A stretch of 63,538 nucleotides of DNA, counting the filler, from Stramenopiles sp. TOSAG23-6 (taxonomy: Eukaryota), in NCBI GenBank assembly GCA_900128565.1. It is 25 parts of 25 records of this genome, joined end to end, with 100 filler letters (N's around TTAATTAATTAA, not from the genome) between each part and the next. Parts side by side here need not be neighbours in the genome. Positions count along the whole stretch, not along the records: positions 10,241 to 12,697 come from LT638035.1; positions 12,798 to 15,253 come from LT638036.1; 23 more parts are not named here. One strand, 5' to 3'. The translations under genes and the position numbers were made by a program. Below, piece after piece: positions 7,584-24,235 of this stretch. The notes beneath the pieces are model-generated. The model was not told the origin of the DNA and made no database searches. It was given only the letters and a program-made list of their open reading frames with translations. Within the stretch, counting starts at the first letter, position 1; the number at the start of each line of letters is the position of its first letter.

Positions 7584-7737
7584 NNNNNNNNNNNNNNNNN
7601 NNNNNNNNNNNNNNNNNNNNNNNNNNNTTAATTAATTAANNNNNNNNNNNNNNNNNNNNNNNNNNNNNNNNNNNNNNNNNNNNTTTTGTACCTAACAAAT
7701 TTTAGTTTTTTTTTTGAAATATTTTTCCAAAATACAT

Positions 7738-10057
7738 CCCTACTTTACTAGTATCAAGATGGGCGACACAGTTAGAACAAGATAAAGATACACAAATGCC
7801 TCCTCCAATTCTGGATACTAGAAGCTCGCCGGATGGAAATTTTATAGCATATGTTCAGGGAGGAGAAATCTATGTGTTAAGGATTGTAAAACAAATCGAT
7901 TCTTATGGAAGAATCATCGTAAATAGTCCAATACGATGTATGTCTTCTGATGGAATAAAAGATAGAATAAAAGAAACTGTAAAAACTGTAAAACGATCTG
8001 TAGTGACACATGGCGTTTCTAGTTTTATAGCGCAAGAAGAAATGGGTAGATTTCGTGGATTTTGGTGGTCAGATGATAGCACTATGATTGCATTTGAAGA
8101 GGTTGATTATGAACCTGTTTCAGAGCATAAAATTCTTCATCTGGATAAAACAGATGTGCCATTGGAAGAGAATCATTACTATCCATTTGCAGGGAAAAAA
8201 AATGTCAAGTCCCGTCTCGGAGTTGTTGCAGTAAATAATCCTGGTGTAGTAAAATGGATGAATCTAACAGAAATAGATGAGAAAAAGAGTTGTGGTGGAG
8301 CACCTGTACATCTATCCAATGATAAATATATACCTGAATATTTAGCCCGAGTTCAGTGGATGTCAGATACCTTTTTATTGGTACAAACACAAAGTAGAAG
8401 ACAGGACAAAACAGAACTTTTACAAATTAATTCTGTTACTGGAAAATGCGTAAAACTATTAGAAGAATCTGTCTTGGATCAATCAAGGTACGAATCTAGT
8501 TGTAAAGATTGTGATGTAAATAATTGCGTTGAATTGGGATATGAGAAGGATAGAAACATTGGTTGGGTAAATTTACATCAACTGTGCTCTGTTGTGACAA
8601 CACAAAATACATCAAATGATAAAACCAATGATAAAAAGTGGCTCATTTGGGGTTCAGAAAGATCAGGATATATGCATTTATACTTATATGCATTTGATAA
8701 CAAAAAAAAACAGAAAACAACCAGAAAAACAAAAGATCAAAATAACTTTTGTGAATTAGTATTATACGGGGCATTGACATGTGGTGATTGGTCAGTTGAA
8801 AAAATATGTGGTATTGATACTGTCAGAGGGATTTTGTTTTTCACAGGGACGAAAGAAAGCGTCTTGGAAAATCATTTATATGCTACCCAGATTCCTTTTA
8901 AAAATAAGAGATATCATGAGTATAGTAATATATCCAATGGACATTCAAGATTATGCAGAAAGATCACAAGGTTAACACCAAAAGAGTCTTTCAATACAAT
9001 AACCATGAGTCATAATTGTAAATATTTCATCAATTGTAGTAGTTCGTTACAGTCTGCACCTTCGGTACAACTGTTTGCAATAAAAGTGAGTGATAGTATT
9101 TGCTGTAGCATGAGTAACAGTACAATGCGAAGTAGTGTGATAGCGAGAGATATAAATATTACTTCATGCTTAACGAGAACATTCCACAGGAGCAGTATGA
9201 CATTGGTAAATGAATGCAAATCAACCTCATCATTTAGTTTTAATAATATTATGGCACGACTTTTGGGTCAAAAGGACCAATCAAATAAAATACCACAAGC
9301 ACCGACAATTAATTTACAAGCATGTACAAATAATAGTGGATTTTCTTCATTAAGACCTCCACTGCTGATATCATTCCCTTCCACGGATGGTGCGGTTACT
9401 CTACATGGTATGATATACGTACCAGATTCTACTATTTTCGGAAACGGGCCTTACCCTACCATCGTTAATGTTTATGGTAATTTACATATCTTTTTAACAT
9501 CTACATTTTGAAATGTTTGAATTCATATATTTTTTTACTAATTCTAAATGTTTTACATACATATTTATATATAACAGGTGGTCCATTAGTACAAGCAGTA
9601 AAGCGATCTTGGAATGTTTCAATGGATGTTTTATCTAGGCACTTCCAAGGGTTGGGGTTTTCAGTCTTAAAGTGTGACAACAGAGGTAGCTCTAGGCGTG
9701 GTGTAGAATTTGAACGGGCCATTTATGTATATTTTCATCATTTCATCTAATTTCATTTTTTTCATAGAAAATGTAAAAGTTTTAAACCTAACGAATGTCA
9801 AACTTTAAAACATATTTGCTGACAATCCATAGAAAGCTTGGTTCAGTAGAAGTCGAAGATCAAGTTGCTGCTGTAAAATATGCAATTTCTTTAGGTATTG
9901 TAGATAGAGATAAGGTTGGCTGTTACGGTTGGAGTTTTGGTGGATTCTTATCTACAATGTGTCTACTAAAAGCTCCTGATATATTTAAAGCTGCAGTTGC
10001 TGGAGCTCCTGTCACAAATTGGACTGGATATGATACACATTATACTGAGCGATATAT
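7738..10057 (+). CDS. Dipeptidyl peptidase IV/8/9-like S9B peptidase (partial); introns 9477-9577 (GT-AG) and 9727-9830 (GT-AT)
   Basis: EEMGRFRGFWWS, YPFAGKKN, VYGGP, DNRGS, catalytic GWSFGG and YDTHYTERYM motifs. Confidence 0.93.
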
Positions 10058-10299
10058 GTACGTTTTTGTCAATTTTTTTTTTTTTTTTTTGTTTTTTCAT
10101 AAAAAATTTCATACCTAACAAAAAAATAAAAAATAAAAAANNNNNNNNNNNNNNNNNNNNNNNNNNNNNNNNNNNNNNNNNNNNTTAATTAATTAANNNN
10201 NNNNNNNNNNNNNNNNNNNNNNNNNNNNNNNNNNNNNNNNTGTTAGGTACAAAATTTCGTACGAAAAAAAAATCAAATTTGAAAAAAAATAAAACATAC

Positions 10300-12616
10300 A
10301 CGTTCCGTAAGAAATTCTCGAAGAACTTTAGCTGAAGGCACCTGTGTCCAATCTTGAGGGACAATATGTATTGTGAAATGTTTTTGTTTTTGTTTCCGGT
10401 AAAAAAAAATCGTTAGGTACAAAATTACGTATGAAAATAATTTTAGAATTCATGATGAGACATAAGACGTACATATGCAACCAATCTTTTATCAGAGCCT
10501 TCATCCCCCTCCACTAAAACAACAGCAGTACTTACAAGAGGATGTTCACTAAGACTAGCTTCGACAGCACCCAAAACAACACTATATCCTCTTATTTTGA
10601 CCATGAAATCAACTCTTCCTGCTAATTCTAGAGTTCCATCTGGCATAAACCTGCCTCTATCACCCGTTCGATACAATCGATCATATAAGCCTGATGTTTC
10701 ATCATTCAATTTTATAAATGGATTCTTAACAAAACGTTCAGCAGTCTTTGCTGGCATATTCAAATAACCACGAGCAAGACACGGACCACCAACATGTATT
10801 GTGAAAAAAAAAACATTTTTTTGTACAAAAAAATCGTTAGGTACAAAATTTCGTATGAAAAAAAATTAAATTAGAAATTCATATCAAACGTACATACACT
10901 TCACCAGGTGTTCCAATTGGAACATGTTTCATTGTATTTGGATTTAAGACGTAACATTTTACATTAGCCATAATTGTACCACATGAAGCATATTTTCTTT
11001 TAGGTTTTGTTATTTTTGTTATTTTTGTATTTGTAGTGAAATCAGATTTTGTAGTACAATCACTCTTTTCAATACCATGATGTAAAACAGCAACAGACAC
11101 ATCATTTACTTTGGGGAAATATTTCAAAAAAAGAAAAACATCTTAGATACAAAATTTTGAATGAAAAAATTTAAAAAAAAAAAAAAAAAATGTAGAAAAA
11201 TATGTTTTGGTTTGTATACTTGTTAGGGTAATAAAAATGAAGAATGATATAATTAGGTTTAGGGTTAATTTAAAACAAAAAAATGAAGAATGATATAATT
11301 AGGTTTAGGGTTAATTTAAAACAAAAAAAATGAAGAATGATATAATTAGGTTTAGGGTTGATATATAACATACATGGCATTCAGATATAGAATATAAATT
11401 TAGTAGTTTACATGATGAAAAACAAGTTGAAAATTTCTGTTGTAACTCAAGTGTAACAACTTCTCCACAAAGCCAAACAATATGTATTTTGGAAAAGTAT
11501 TTCAAAAAAAAAAATTAAAATTTGTTAGGTACAAAATTTCCTATAAAAAAATAAATTCAAAATTGAAGAAAAAATAAAACATACATTCAATGAATTCATT
11601 CTTTCAAATAAAATTGATTCATCTAATGTATCCAGGACCAACTGTAATAAAGAAGGAGTCAATAAAATACGCGTAATTTGATATTTTTGAATATATAATG
11701 ATAATTCTTCAGCATCATATATGACGTCATCGGGGATTATAAATGTTGGAAATCCTCGCATCAGTGGACGAAAAACTTCCCATACAAAAAATACAGCACA
11801 TGCGACTTTATCGTGTTTTTGTAATGGATAATTTTCATGTCGCCAATGATAAGAATGAACCGCACCACGATGAGGACAACAAATTCCTTTTGGTACGCCT
11901 GTGGTCCCTGAGGACATGACAACATATGCTAAATTATCTGGAGTTGGTTCTTTTCTATTTGGGTATACATTCAAATCATTATATTTTGGTAATAAAAGTA
12001 ATTGTTCCCGCCAGTTTCCATCATCATCGATGACAAGTTGATTTTGTGTTGAAGGTAATCGTCCATGTAAGGTACTTTCTGTAAATACTGCGACACAATT
12101 TGTTTCACGTAATACTCGGTGAATCAATTCTGGAGGATACGCTAGTTCTATAGGCATATGTTTTGTAAAAAAATATTTAAAATTTTTTTTTTTCTTTAGG
12201 TACAAAATTTTTTGAAAAAAATAAATTCAAAATTGAAAAAAAANAAAANAATACATACGCACCACCTGCCTTATGTGCTGCAATATAACTCAACACATAT
12301 GCTGCGCTACGACTCATATATATTCCTACAACTCTATCGGGTACACATGTATTTTGGAAAAATATTTCAAAAAAATATTCGTTAGGTACAAAATTTCGTA
12401 TGAAAAAAAAAATCGATTTTTTTGTTAAAAAAAAAAATAAAACCTACATCCTTTTGCTACCAAATACGATGCGAGAAGATCTGTATCTTCATCAACCTGA
12501 GCATACGTCCAAGTATTTTGTTTTCCATTAGGTTTACAAGGATCAACAATAGCAATTGCATTGGGTGTTTTTTTAGATTGAACCATAAAAGAATCATGCA
12601 AACGCTCAGTATCAGG
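10300..12616 (-). CDS. NRPS-like adenylation-domain protein (partial) with six complete GT-AT introns (12347-12447, 12158-12254, 11482-11584, 11104-11373, 10794-10893, 10366-10472)
   Basis: Spliced motifs AGGAY/MPIELAYP, YVVMSSGTTGVPKG, NLYSISECH/DVS, PGEVY/VGGPCLARGYLN, LYRTGD, VKIRG, LVAY/IVP. Confidence 0.93.
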
Positions 12617-12895
12617 ATGTATTTTGGAAAAATATTTCAAAAAATAATCGTTAGGTACAAAATTTCGTACGAAAAATAAATTCGAAATTGAAAAAAANNN
12701 NNNNNNNNNNNNNNNNNNNNNNNNNNNNNNNNNNNNNNNNNTTAATTAATTAANNNNNNNNNNNNNNNNNNNNNNNNNNNNNNNNNNNNNNNNNNNNAAA
12801 TATTTCAAAAAAAAAAACTAAAATTTNTTNGGTNCAAANTTNCGTATGAAAACCAAAAAAAAAAAATTAGACAAAACATTGAAATAAAAACGTAC

Positions 12896-17962: not shown

Positions 17963-19879
17963 GGACGTTCCATACTTTTATTATCAGATCATATGCCTGT
18001 TCGAGCTGTATTTCGAATTTATGTAGATGAAATTTCTACCCTAAATAAAAGTAGAAATAGTACAAGTAATAGTAAAGACGAAGTTGTTATAGGGTATTGT
18101 AATGACATTTCACAGATGGAATTTTATTGCCTTGATAAAAATCCTAACCCAAATAGAAAAAACAATCAAAAAAATACAACTTCTATAAAAAAAATGCCTC
18201 TATTAACGATTCCCTCCCTTCACCATGATTTTAAAAATTGGCCACATCAAAAAAATACTACTGCAACTGAAAATGCAAATAATCTAAATTATCTAAAACA
18301 TTTAAAAAATTCAAAAGATAAAAAATTAGACAAACATAGACTAGGCATTTATAAAGTGGATGTACGTTTTATTTTTTTTTTTAAACAAAAAATCGATTTT
18401 TTTTCGTACGAAATTTTGTACCTAACAATTTCTTTTAGATTTTTTTTGAAATATTTTTCATAATAAATGATGCAAATCATGTGTTACATATATATCAAAT
18501 ATTTACGTTGTGTACGAAATTGGTACAAGATAAGAATAAATCAAACCATACAATATCAATTTTACCACTTGTACCCGTTCATAAAAATATCATTATTTGT
18601 ACGTTATCAAATGAAAGTCTAAACGATAGAAATGTAGGATTTCCATGTTGTTGTATAAAAACAGGAAGAAAAAGAAAAAAAATAAAAAAAAAAAAAAGTC
18701 GTCAAAATCAAAACAATCAAAAACATATGAAATCTCTACAGGAATTTCTACAGTTTCATAATCCTCATACATCGTATCAATCAGCTTTACAATTATGTGC
18801 TCAAACTATGGCTTTGCATTCAGTTGTTGCTTTTGTCTTTGGATTATTAGATTGGTGTTCTTATTGGTGGATTTGTCCAAATGGACAGGTTTGTACTGAT
18901 ATGAAATGTATAGAATTTCTACTGGGTTGTAAAAATACAAAACATACAAAACATACAAAACATACAAAACATACAAAAAATATATTTACACATAACCCTA
19001 CTAAAATCAGGACATATTTAGAACCGCTCTCAGTAGCAGGAGAAATTATGCAATCCATTGACATGCTTGATGAATGGCGCGAACATGAACGTTTTATTTT
19101 TTTTCAATTTCGAATTTATTTTTTTTGTACGAAATTTCTTACCTAACAAAAAAAACAATATAAAAATATATTTTTTCACAATACATGCTATTGCAACATG
19201 GTTTGTTTTACGAAACAATGTCACTTCGTTTAGTAGTATATTTCGTGTGTTTACAAAAACACAAACACCACGAAATATGTATGAACATGCTATGGTGTAC
19301 ATAACAGAAACGTTACATCTAGATTGCATTAAAAAGAAAAACAAACAAAAAATTCGAAATTCGTTTTTTACAATTTTACAAAAGTCAGCAATATCAAATT
19401 CTACACTGACTTTACAAAATTTGATACAAAATTTGTTACCTAAAGGTATGATAACATCACAACGTTCCAATCTAAATACTCTACAAATCAAAATATTGAA
19501 AATGCAAACGATGAAATTGAAAAGTGTATGTTTTTTTTTCAAATTCGAAATTTTTTTCGTACGCAATTTTGTACTTAACAATTTTTTTTTGAAATATTTT
19601 TCCAAAATACATACACTTCAAAAAAAATATTTAAAAGATAATGAAATTTTACCTGTTGGTTTTTATGCTGGTTCTATTGACGATAGACTGTGTGCTGTGT
19701 ATGGTACAAAAAATGGTACAAAAAATAGAATTGATAGAATTGAACTTTTTTTTTCTACTATTTCAGATATTTCGTGTTCTGGTGGTAGTGATATTTCAGA
19801 AGAGGAAGACGGAAATAAAAGTAGAAGAAGATGTTCATCTTGGATGCAACAAATTCCCCCAGGAACACCTCCACCATAA
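17963..19879 (+). CDS. Multi-exon protein with an inositol 5-phosphatase-type C-terminal motif and a degenerate PI3K-like region; introns 18362-18468, 19087-19186, 19526-19612
   Basis: SDHMPVRAVF motif; later CAQTMALHSVVAFVFGLLD..NGQV..D and AIATWFVLRN resemble PI3K catalytic-domain segments; exons join in frame with AT-ending introns. Confidence 0.5.
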
Positions 19880-21951: not shown

Positions 21952-22801
21952 TCAAACTTGTCTTTTAATAAGTTTTTGGAATAATTTTCCATTAGAATTA
22001 TCTACATCAACTAAATCCTGATATGTCCCAGTTTCAACAATTTGTCCTTCATGCATTAACGCAATAGAGTCAGCAGCGCGCATTGTACTAACTCTATGCA
22101 TTTTGGAAAAATATTTCAAAAAAAAAATTCTAAAATTTGTTAGGTACAAAATTTCGTACGAAACCAAAAAAAAAAATAAATTCGAAATTGAAAAAAAATA
22201 AAACGTACATGAGCTATGGATATAATAGTTGTATTTGTTTCACCTATTTTCGTTTTATTACAAATACGATGTACCGCACGTTGAATCTCATACATATATT
22301 TAAAAAAAATATTTTTTTTTTTGTAAAATTTGTTAGGTACGAAATTTCGTACGAAAAAAAAAATTAGACAAAAAAATCAAAAAAAAATAAAACATACTCA
22401 CTTTCTGAATCTAAAGCTGATGTTGCTTCATCAAGAATGATAATAGGAGGATTTATCAGGAGAGCTCTAGCCAATGCAATTCGTTGTTTTTGCCCACCTG
22501 AAAGTTGAATACCTCGTTCTCCAACCATGTAGTATGAAAAAATATGACACATTTGAAATGGGTCAAATAAAATGTTACGTACAAAAAATTTTGGTACAAA
22601 TTTTGGTACAAATTTTGGTACAAAAAAAAAAAAAAAAAATTAAAATTGGTGATGAAAAATTACATTGTATCAAGACCATCTGGCAGAGCCATCACGAAAT
22701 CATAAGCAGAAGATGCAATTAAAACGTCTTCGATTTGTGACAAATTTGCATCTGGACATCCAAATTTTATATTATCCAATAGAGAACATTTATTGTCAAA
22801 C
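21952..22801 (-). CDS. ABCB-type ABC transporter, C-terminal nucleotide-binding domain; GT-AT introns 22527-22663, 22294-22397, 22096-22208
   Basis: [50 protein letters not shown]. Confidence 0.93.
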
Positions 22802-23139: not shown

Positions 23140-24235
23140 ATGAAGTTTGTTTGCTATCGTTGTAATTCTTGTGTTTATAAGCAGAAAATCGATTCATTCT
23201 TTGCAAATGATTCTGTTTTATTGTTGAAATATTTGATGATTTTGATAATGTTGATGATGATTTTGATGAGTTTTCTATACGAAATTCTGTACCATCTTGA
23301 CATTTTTTTTCATTTTTTTCATTTTTTTTATTTTTTTCATTTTTTTTATTTTTTTTATTTTTTATATTTGTTTGCAATTGTAGTGTTAATTCTTTAACTC
23401 GTGCCTTTATTGCTTCATTGTCCAATCCAGATATACGTAATGCTGTTTGAATATTAGCAAGACTTTCATTATCTAATCTACTTTTACCTGTTTTGTATGA
23501 ACATATTTCAAAAATATTATTTTTTTTTGTTTTTTTGGTTAGGTACAAAATTTCGTATGAAAAAAAAAAAAAAAAGTAGTAGGGTTAGGATAAAGTACAT
23601 ATACCCCTTTCAATTCTGCTCCGTACAAACACTTTTTTCGTTCTATATTCTTCATCTACAACAGTTGTGTCCAAACCAGATAAAATCATTCGCTCAAATA
23701 TTCTTACTTTTGTAAAACCCAACACATCATGTAAATGAAATATATGTCGATATTCAGGGTGAATATTCGCATTGATGAGAGGTTCCTTTAATGGAAACTT
23801 TAACGTTTCCTTTAGAGATTGCTTTTCTCCCAATGTTGCACATGGTACAACTGTTCCTTGTTTTTTTGATTCTGTTGATTCCTTTGGTTGTTTTGGTATA
23901 CTATATTTAGAAGTCCGTCGTTGTTTTGTGTGACTAGGTAATGTTGTCGTGACACTTTTGTCACTTTGTTTTTTTTGGTTATCTTGGTTATTTTGGTTAT
24001 TTTGGATCGGGAGACCAGTGTATTCTTTTAAATACTTGACACTATCAATCTTGATCTGTGTACTGTCTTTTCGCCCCTTTCCTCCACGGAACATTTTTTG
24101 TATTGTAATTGCTGATGTATGTCGTTTAGCAGTATATTTTGATGTATATGGAACATTCTGAGGATTCCTAAGTGAATCTCTTATTTGTGTTGGGGTCCAA
24201 GGCCTGGAAAGAAGAGAACAATGAGAACCGCTCAT
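23140..24235 (-). CDS. IQ-motif protein (3'-partial); intron 23503-23598
   Basis: SAITIQKMFRG IQ motif; frames join with GT-AT removal. Confidence 0.65.

Follow-up and report, generated by a model that had tools for sequence, protein, structure and literature searches.

The DNA analysed here (63,538 nt in all, hereafter the window) consists of about 25 contigs of roughly 2.45 kb each, which are chained through N44-TTAATTAATTAA-N44 linkers, so that genes adjacent in the window are not genomic neighbours. The G+C content along the window ranges from about 0.19 to 0.36. This report concerns a single contig, positions 10241-12697 (2457 bases), whose minus strand carries part of a gene for a nonribosomal peptide synthetase (NRPS)-like adenylate-forming enzyme, the six complete introns that interrupt this gene, and the repeat family to which these introns belong.

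The adenylation-domain gene

The seven exons of the gene (Table 1), joined at six junctions, give 1539 nt or 513 codons without a single stop. Five of the seven match the Pfam family AMP-binding (PF00501) in collinear order; exon 3 alone exceeds the cut-off of 29.9 bits, exons 1, 2, 4, and 5 remain below it, and the profile search gave no match for exons 6 and 7. The spliced product contains the stretches SSGTTGxPKG, YRTGD, and KIRGY, which we take to be the core motifs of adenylation domains. Exon 3 as query retrieved 127 longer relatives; P0001 ranks first with 63% identity, while identity to many NRPS-like proteins of oomycetes, other protists, and animals is 45-56%. A scan of metagenome contigs with the same exon gave no close relative and only two distant matches (44-47% over about 45 residues). 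The relatives are mostly NRPS-like and combine adenylation, carrier, reductase, and thioesterase domains; they bear names such as 'glycine betaine reductase ATRR', 'L-aminoadipate-semialdehyde dehydrogenase', and 'linear gramicidin synthase subunit D'. The spliced adenylation domain is collinear from end to end with that of the NRPS-like enzymes built of adenylation, carrier, and reductase domains (A-T-R, or A-T-R-TE with a thioesterase). The best homologues also have carrier (PF00550) and reductase (PF07993) domains, whereas the contig holds the adenylation domain only and ends inside the gene. Judged by these similarities, what the contig holds is part of a gene for an adenylate-forming enzyme of the NRPS-like kind. 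The best relative, P0001, is itself an automatic model and is without about 50 residues precisely at the position of window exon 5; by this comparison the genome that it comes from may contain similarly mis-modelled introns.

For the junctions, 13 homologues selected from the exon 3 relatives were aligned with the 513-residue product. All 13 align end to end, and the six junctions are free of gaps in every one of them. The joins SECH/DVS, GEVY/VGGP, and LVAY/IVP lie within motifs that are identical in most of these homologues, and GGAY/MPIE and SLN/IVWLCGE are also embedded in strongly conserved stretches. The closest gaps are one column three residues ahead of junction 1, where two of the 13 have an extra residue, and an insertion within exon 5. 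The original prediction for this locus had described an NRPS-like adenylation domain with six consecutive AT-ending, non-GT-AG introns and exact, motif-correct joins that chance could hardly produce. The per-exon Pfam matches and the alignment bear out both the domain and the introns, all six junction peptides were reproduced (the sixth being KGC/VPD), and an open frame of 1539 nt, collinear profile matches in five of seven exons, and junctions free of gaps place the joins beyond chance.

Table 1. Exons and introns of the adenylation-domain gene on contig 10241-12697.
Feature	Position	Strand	Length (nt)	Phase	Intron ends	Profile positions (AMP-binding) and remarks
Upstream intron, 3' part	12617..12697	-			...CCAAAATACAT	Clipped by contig end; has repeat core
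Exon 1	12448..12616	-	169			4-42
Intron 1	12347..12447	-	101	1	GTAGGT...ATACAT	Repeat-family copy
Exon 2	12255..12346	-	92			45-73
Intron 2	12158..12254	-	97	0	GTATTN...AAAACAT	Two single N; diverged core, 2 mismatches
Exon 3	11585..12157	-	573			75-274, 79.6 bits
Intron 3	11482..11584	-	103	0	GTATGT...ATACAT	
Exon 4	11374..11481	-	108			291-324
Intron 4	11104..11373	-	270	0	GTATGT...AGTAAAT	Diverged copy
Exon 5	10894..11103	-	210			331-373
Intron 5	10794..10893	-	100	0	GTACGT...ATACAT	
Exon 6	10473..10793	-	321			No separate Pfam match; homologues align throughout
Intron 6	10366..10472	-	107	0	GTACGT...ATACAT	Skipped exactly in RNA-library contig
Exon 7	10300..10365	-	66			
Next intron, 5' part	10241..10299	-			GTATGTTTTA...	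Runs to repeat core; clipped by contig end

Nearly all eukaryotic introns end in AG, for reasons that are still debated. The six introns of the adenylation gene all begin with GT (GTATGT, GTACGT, GTAGGT, or GTATTN) and all end in AT (ACAT in five, AAAT in one), so that the AG of major introns is found in none of them. In all six cases the upstream exon also ends in AT (GAT, TAT, AAT, CAT, TAT, and TAT), as had been noticed from the start. Intron 4 owes its greater length to a tandem array of three 46-nt units (11233-11370) that contains telomere-like words, and has an AG five nucleotides ahead of its end.

Boundaries of the ordinary GT-AG kind were enumerated as in-frame, stop-free pairs within 45 nt on either side of the cuts. 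This yielded 38 alternatives, of which 37 alter the length of the product by -78 to +42 nt, and the remaining one exchanges 12-13 conserved residues for repeat-derived ones. The original prediction had set the AT-ending introns against such models, and every one of the 38 indeed deletes, adds, or replaces conserved residues. Moreover, four of the six introns have no AG at all between the branch-like motif and the cut.

A repeat family underlies the introns

Three findings go beyond what had been predicted: all six introns are members of a single abundant repeat family; their AT belongs to a 2-nt direct repeat, which leaves the cuts ambiguous by two bases; and other genes of the window follow the same rule, at times with TT, GT, or AG instead of AT. 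The 17-base core of the family, GAAATTTTGTACCTAAC, occurs 74 times in the window with up to three mismatches, against 0.64 expected, and none of 100 shuffles reached this number. It is present on most contigs and often lies right at their ends (including both ends of 10241-12697), which suggests that the assembly breaks within the repeat.

A typical copy is about 100 bases long, and 21 complete copies align over their full length. The consensus reads, in this order, GTAYG, a T-rich segment, often CAATTTCGAATTTA, TTTC(R)TACGAAATTT(Y)GTACCTAAC, a T/A-rich segment, and TGAAATATTTTT(C/T)CA(A/C)AATAC followed by two bases. A copy thus combines GTAYGT with a branch-like TACCTAAC and a tail rich in T, and ends two bases beyond the terminal TAY. 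Invariant among the 21 are the T that precedes the GT, the core, and the final T of the intron. CCTAAC is invariant or nearly so and is followed by T runs; typical copies have its CTAAC at 31-54 nt from their 3' end, and 21 of 32 automatically delimited copies contain no AG between this motif and their end. The 5' end is GT in 19 of the 21 aligned copies, the exceptions being GA and AT; the copies at 19087-19186 and 37899-38004 begin with GA and AT, respectively, and yet obey the frame rule described below.

A hand-made list of 28 copies has the 3' ends AT (23), TT (2), GT (1), and AG (2). In 23 of these 28 the last dinucleotide of the intron equals the dinucleotide before the GT, a number reached by 0.2% of permutations, and both TT-ending copies are preceded by TT (1.6% by chance). 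A conserved secondary structure was not detected: RNAalifold found no conserved pair among the 21 copies, and five of the six introns fold no better than shuffled sequences (z-scores of -0.10, 0.38, -0.75, 0.66, -2.77, and -0.86). In some minimum-energy folds GUAYG can pair with (C/U)GUAC directly 5' of CUAAC, in columns that never vary in either partner. A tandem pile of about six partial cores (CATACGAAATTTCRTACCTAAC), spaced about 41 nt apart, occupies 57780-58010 within one long intron-like stretch.

The same rule in other genes of the window

The genes that host copies of the repeat include, besides the AMP-binding gene, genes with peptidase S9 and helicase-like matches and a KDPS gene without a Pfam family; the latter two names are ones that we assume to be apt, and Pfam gave weak matches or none for the exons of these genes. 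Contig 7684-10140 carries the peptidase S9 (DPP-IV-like) gene, in which AT precedes the GT of a diverged copy (GTATAT...TCCAT, 9727-9830); removal of this copy joins position 37 of the Peptidase_S9 profile to position 38. The same gene contains an ordinary GT-AG intron at 9477-9577 (GTAATT...ACTAAT...AACAG), so that both kinds would be processed within one transcript.

The KDPS gene on contig 35762-38208 illustrates the rule with another dinucleotide. Here the GT of the copy at 37339-37453 is preceded by TT, the last two bases are again TT, and removal gives KDPSWKTRYPGK. A search with the exon upstream of the copy gave three homologues that read KDPSFKDRYPGK, KDPSFEERFPGK, and RDPSAATRFPGK, all equal in length to KDPSWKTRYPGK, and the homologues follow the pattern KDPSF(K/E)(D/E)R(Y/F)PGK or RDPSAATRFPGK. 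A public automatic model, P0252, also hit by this search and 100% identical to the window exon, translates the intron as CTFSKLKFFFIFFFLKIS at a place where the homologues have a single aromatic residue, and also omits real exon sequence.

Two counts extend the rule to the window as a whole. When the intron is taken to run from the GT to two bases beyond the element end, the reading frames are joined in 15 of 21 copies whose flanking frames are unambiguous, against seven expected (p = 4e-4). Relative to the flanking open reading frame (ORF), 29 of 34 scorable copies are in sense orientation (p = 2e-5); of the five exceptions, at least three are artefacts that can be traced to contig ends or linkers. 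Such a bias for the sense strand is expected of a signal that acts at the RNA level.

An intron-like stretch of a different make is found at 37640-37800; it starts with AG followed by GTTAACCCTAACCCTAATC and continues with very long T and A homopolymers, and may be a second type of intron.

Evidence from RNA libraries

Eight public seawater or marine runs, seven of them recorded as RNA, were considered, each with 0.04-0.12 of the stretch. Contigs of four runs were mapped onto 10241-12243, a segment that covers introns 3 to 6. One contig of 151 nt from a seawater metatranscriptome (run X4, record 14) joins 10545-10473 directly to 10365-10298, with 73 letters before the joint, 68 after it, and no extra letter between them, and thereby omits exactly 10366-10472, which is intron 6. 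The same contig departs from the genome where the next intron begins. It is a good but solitary piece of support at the transcript level, from a library that may hold DNA, and covers one of the six junctions for which the original prediction had suggested a transcript check. A second contig of this run stops two bases beyond the border of exon 6, which fits the AT ambiguity and is weak evidence. The roughly 1000 contigs from run X1 and from run X5 fall mostly on the intron repeats and are uninformative for expression. Other contig joints link separate copies of the repeat and were regarded as cross-matches.

Probable spliceosomal introns of introner origin

In our judgement the segments are likely, with good confidence, to be spliceosomal GT..AT introns that originated as introners. 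The repeat family, the exact restoration of a conserved protein in three genes, the sense bias, and the absence of intron 6 from an RNA-library contig are direct observations. They are consistent with a short non-autonomous mobile element of about 100 nt, an introner or an element resembling a miniature inverted-repeat transposable element (MITE), that would have spread through the genes of an AT-rich marine protist. The element would supply its own 5' splice site, with GTAYGT at its first base, and a branch-site-like TACCTAAC in its conserved core, the adenosine of which presumably serves as branch point, followed by a T-rich stretch. The major spliceosome would then make the 5' cut ahead of the GT and the 3' cut two bases beyond the terminal TAY. 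The final two bases, mostly AT, usually copy the exon bases before the GT, as in a 2-nt target-site duplication, and this short repeat may thus have arisen by transposition. Excision of the element together with one copy of the repeat restores an uninterrupted reading frame, and the outcome would be a class of GT..AT introns, with rarer GT..TT, GT..GT, and GT..AG forms, that is processed beside ordinary GT-AG introns.

Several points weigh against this explanation. Homology proves a clean insertion and not splicing, since excising any transposon along with one copy of its duplication restores an ORF. The RNA support is a single piece, one 151-nt contig with one junction from a library that may hold DNA, and a contig from another run (X5, record 19) extends over 11027-11158 and so includes the 3' portion of intron 4; this contig could be unspliced RNA or DNA. 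The 2-nt ambiguity of the cuts is present at all six introns of the adenylation gene. Five of the 28 hand-listed copies have unequal dinucleotides (19526-19612, 41902-42006, and 52521-52612 among the unequal ones), and some end in AG (e.g. near 23554 and 48773), which indicates that the 2-nt repeat is not obligatory. The only inverted terminal repeat is GTAT...ATAC, 4 nt long or 6 nt with the AT, and neither an autonomous element nor an empty site was found, transposases not having been searched for. The frame test leaves six of 21 copies as misfits, four of which amount to two copies that are duplicated and were probably mis-delimited; delimitation by motifs does misplace some copies (28775-28875 and its duplicate, 22307-22397, and 29238-29344 and its duplicate). 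At 36391-36502 and 159-281, both with AT/AT ends, in-frame joining requires an intron shorter by one base than the rule gives, which could reflect a homopolymer sequencing error, a different cut, or a further intron nearby. The mildest GT-AG alternative, at intron 4, merely inserts the three residues VLN within SECHDVS; we consider it unlikely. Finally, Rfam at gathering thresholds and ARAGORN gave no matches in the window, with neither rRNA nor any small nuclear RNA (snRNA), the minor ones included, in what is a very small part of the genome.

The 2-nt repeat bears directly on where the cuts fall. With AT before the GT and AT at the intron end, the readings GT..AT, TG..CA, and AT..AC all draw the same mRNA. 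That the same segments are removed as AT..AC introns of the U2-type AT-AC or the U12-type, with both cuts two bases upstream, seems improbable to us. Five of the six introns do become AT...AC under this shift with an identical mRNA, and a first A combined with a last C is a pair that spliceosomes tolerate. Intron 4, however, would become AT..AA. Diverged copies keep the final AT, or at least its T, while the preceding AC becomes AA, GC, TC, GT, or CC, and it is in these that the shifted introns would end. At copy 52521-52612, whose dinucleotides are TT and AT, the shift yields ...TTA ATT TAA with a stop in frame, whereas GT..AT yields ...RLIYCTTGILLRQL. Both the retained AT and this stop codon favour GT..AT. 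Minor (U12) introns have the consensus RTATCCTT at the 5' end and TCCTTAAC near the 3' end, at a distance of about 10-26 nt. The present introns start with GTAYGT instead, and their CTAAC is placed 31-54 nt from the 3' end.

Alternatively, the elements might not be removed from RNA at all. They could be excised from DNA, in the manner of the internal eliminated sequences (IESs) of ciliates, or they could be disruptive insertions, with the RNA contig deriving from a strain free of the element; we give little credence to either version. A precise restoration of the ORF is what any element with a target duplication would give, short AT-rich elements flanked by 2-nt direct repeats resemble ciliate IESs, and the sole bridging contig, from a library possibly containing DNA, would fit an intron-less allele. 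Removal from RNA is nevertheless argued for by the bias of 29 in 34 copies for the sense strand, which neither version predicts, by splice-like signals (GTAYGT and CTAAC) that are retained even in diverged copies, by the element load, with seven or more insertions in 2.4 kb of the adenylation gene and many genes hit, and by the bridging contig, which departs from the genome at the next intron as well. Against excision of the ciliate type in particular, the window has long ORFs without in-frame TAA or TAG, contrary to the usual ciliate codes, and the boundary repeat is AT or TT rather than TA.

That these are ordinary GT-AG introns with other boundaries, the AT pattern being a by-product of the repeat, can hardly be upheld: 38 in-frame, stop-free combinations exist within 45 nt of the cuts and the public model P0252, on another contig, uses such a structure, but all 38 disrupt the conserved peptide, P0252 makes protein (CTFSKLKFFFIFFFLKIS) of an intron where homologues have one aromatic residue, the joint of 10473 to 10365 in the RNA contig corresponds to no GT-AG pair and contradicts this explanation for intron 6, and the lack of an AG downstream of the branch-like motif in four introns speaks in the same direction.

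Comparison with known non-canonical introns

Few lineages depart from the AG rule at large scale, and descriptions exist for larvacean tunicates, Amoebophrya, euglenids, and diplonemids (PMC13326754, PMC7789003, PMC12621601). The larvaceans Fritillaria borealis and F. pellucida offer the closest parallel: many of their introns are reported to escape the GT-AG rule, and a transposon origin involving terminal inverted repeats and target-site duplications was proposed (PMC13326754, PMC11282704). In the parts of these two sources that treat intron ends, the ends are very diverse, AG/AC and AG/AT are the main classes, and AT is the commonest 3' end with 34% and 44% of introns, while duplicated U2AF subunits and snRNA modification are also reported (PMC13326754, PMC11282704). 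As far as these accounts go, the present introns share with those of Fritillaria a short repeat (YAY in Fritillaria, NAT/CAT in the window) that precedes the 5' cut and recurs at the very end of the intron, as well as the presence of canonical introns in the same genome. They differ in the canonical GTAYGT at their 5' end, in forming one recognisable family, and in a host that falls outside the animal clade in the RPA1 tree described below. When the six introns were compared with the Fritillaria type, the last three bases were CAT in five and AAT in one, YAY preceded the GT in four, and the 5' end was GT and not AG.

Introners, including those of Chrysochromulina sp., are likewise present in many copies, oriented in the sense direction, and inserted in unrelated genes; as the cited papers describe them, the element brings the 5' site, the duplicated target supplies the end of the intron, and the length of the mRNA is unchanged (PMC9860276, PMC12130899). 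Where they depart from the present family is in the target, which according to these descriptions provides a co-opted AG and is duplicated over 3-8 nt, whereas the apparent duplication in the window spans 2 nt and is mostly AT (PMC9860276, PMC12130899). It would be this short, mostly AT duplication that makes the introns non-canonical. As far as its curation is described, one of these studies took AG and AC as the sole 3' ends to be expected (PMC12130899). The non-canonical introns of Amoebophrya (PMC7789003) and of euglenids and diplonemids (PMC12621601) resemble the present ones in being repeated, in having short border repeats, and in occurring in marine protists. For these, the cited accounts describe inverted repeats of 8-20 nt or extended pairing that draws the two intron ends together, and no fixed end dinucleotides (PMC7789003, PMC12621601); a family with a fixed 5' GT and no conserved structure is therefore unlike such hairpin-type non-conventional introns.

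A literature search found no paper that pairs 'GT-AT' with 'introner', supplements and many journals lying outside its reach. As to genomics papers on marine stramenopiles (MAST), the main text of two has no occurrence of 'intron' (PMC8163842, PMC12614181), and that of a third mentions introns in its methods only and 'splice' never (PMC5778133), supplements again being outside the search. MITE-derived non-canonical introns are already known, and the present case is best filed as an introner family of a marine stramenopile that makes introns of the GT..AT kind. One element family that combines a canonical 5' site and branch signal with a 3' AT would isolate the question of the 3' end, and would show that non-canonical introns can be created directly by the insertion of a transposon.

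A wider claim, to which we assign even chances, is that a heterotrophic marine stramenopile, apparently of the MAST-3 group, possesses a second, genome-wide class of GT...AT spliceosomal introns that was seeded by the 2-nt duplication of one introner family. If so, the major spliceosome would select the 3' cut without a terminal G, through the distance from the branch site and/or an A at -2 and a T at -1. Tolerance of a 3' AT would then have a second independent origin besides that in larvacean tunicates, and a much cleaner one, the 5' and branch sites being canonical. There is also a practical side. Gene finders that know only GT-AG introns mis-model such genes and assemblies break within the repeat, so that the protein catalogues of an abundant uncultured group are likely to be damaged systematically. 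Gene catalogues are probably affected wherever such introns occur, P0252 being an example.

The host organism

The closest relatives of two window genes are protist records (63% and 57% identity), and relatives at lower identity belong to oomycetes and other stramenopiles, a nucleariid, and animals. In a tree of RPA1, built from 26 rows selected among 120 listed, the window sequence groups with two proteins outside a well-supported animal clade; these 26 rows left its position among oomycetes, ochrophytes, and opisthokonts without resolution. A protein atlas assigned the RPA1 ORF to nothing narrower than 'eukaryote'. The source name of P0252, the model identical to the exon on contig 35762-38208, contains 'MAST3'. 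The host is thus apparently a MAST-3 marine stramenopile, going by this source name, and the seawater runs fit such a host. An affinity to tunicates had been entertained, but was dropped in view of the protist records among the best relatives and of the source name.

Other features of the window

Contig 28116-30565 is an inverted self-duplication. Its ORF at 28196-28789 on the plus strand is identical to that at 29892-30485 on the minus strand, and its repeat copies at 28818/29863 and 29275/29406 mirror each other; the contig looks like the product of amplification or an assembly chimera. The telomere-like word CCCTAACCCTAA occurs 29 times in the window with up to one mismatch, against 0.10 expected, at sites that include 747-758, 951-962, 11253-11357, 37649-37660, 38087-38098, 48805-48822, 52848-52859, and 58034-58058. 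Its copies lie partly in introns and partly in frame within long ORFs, where they encode NPNPN.

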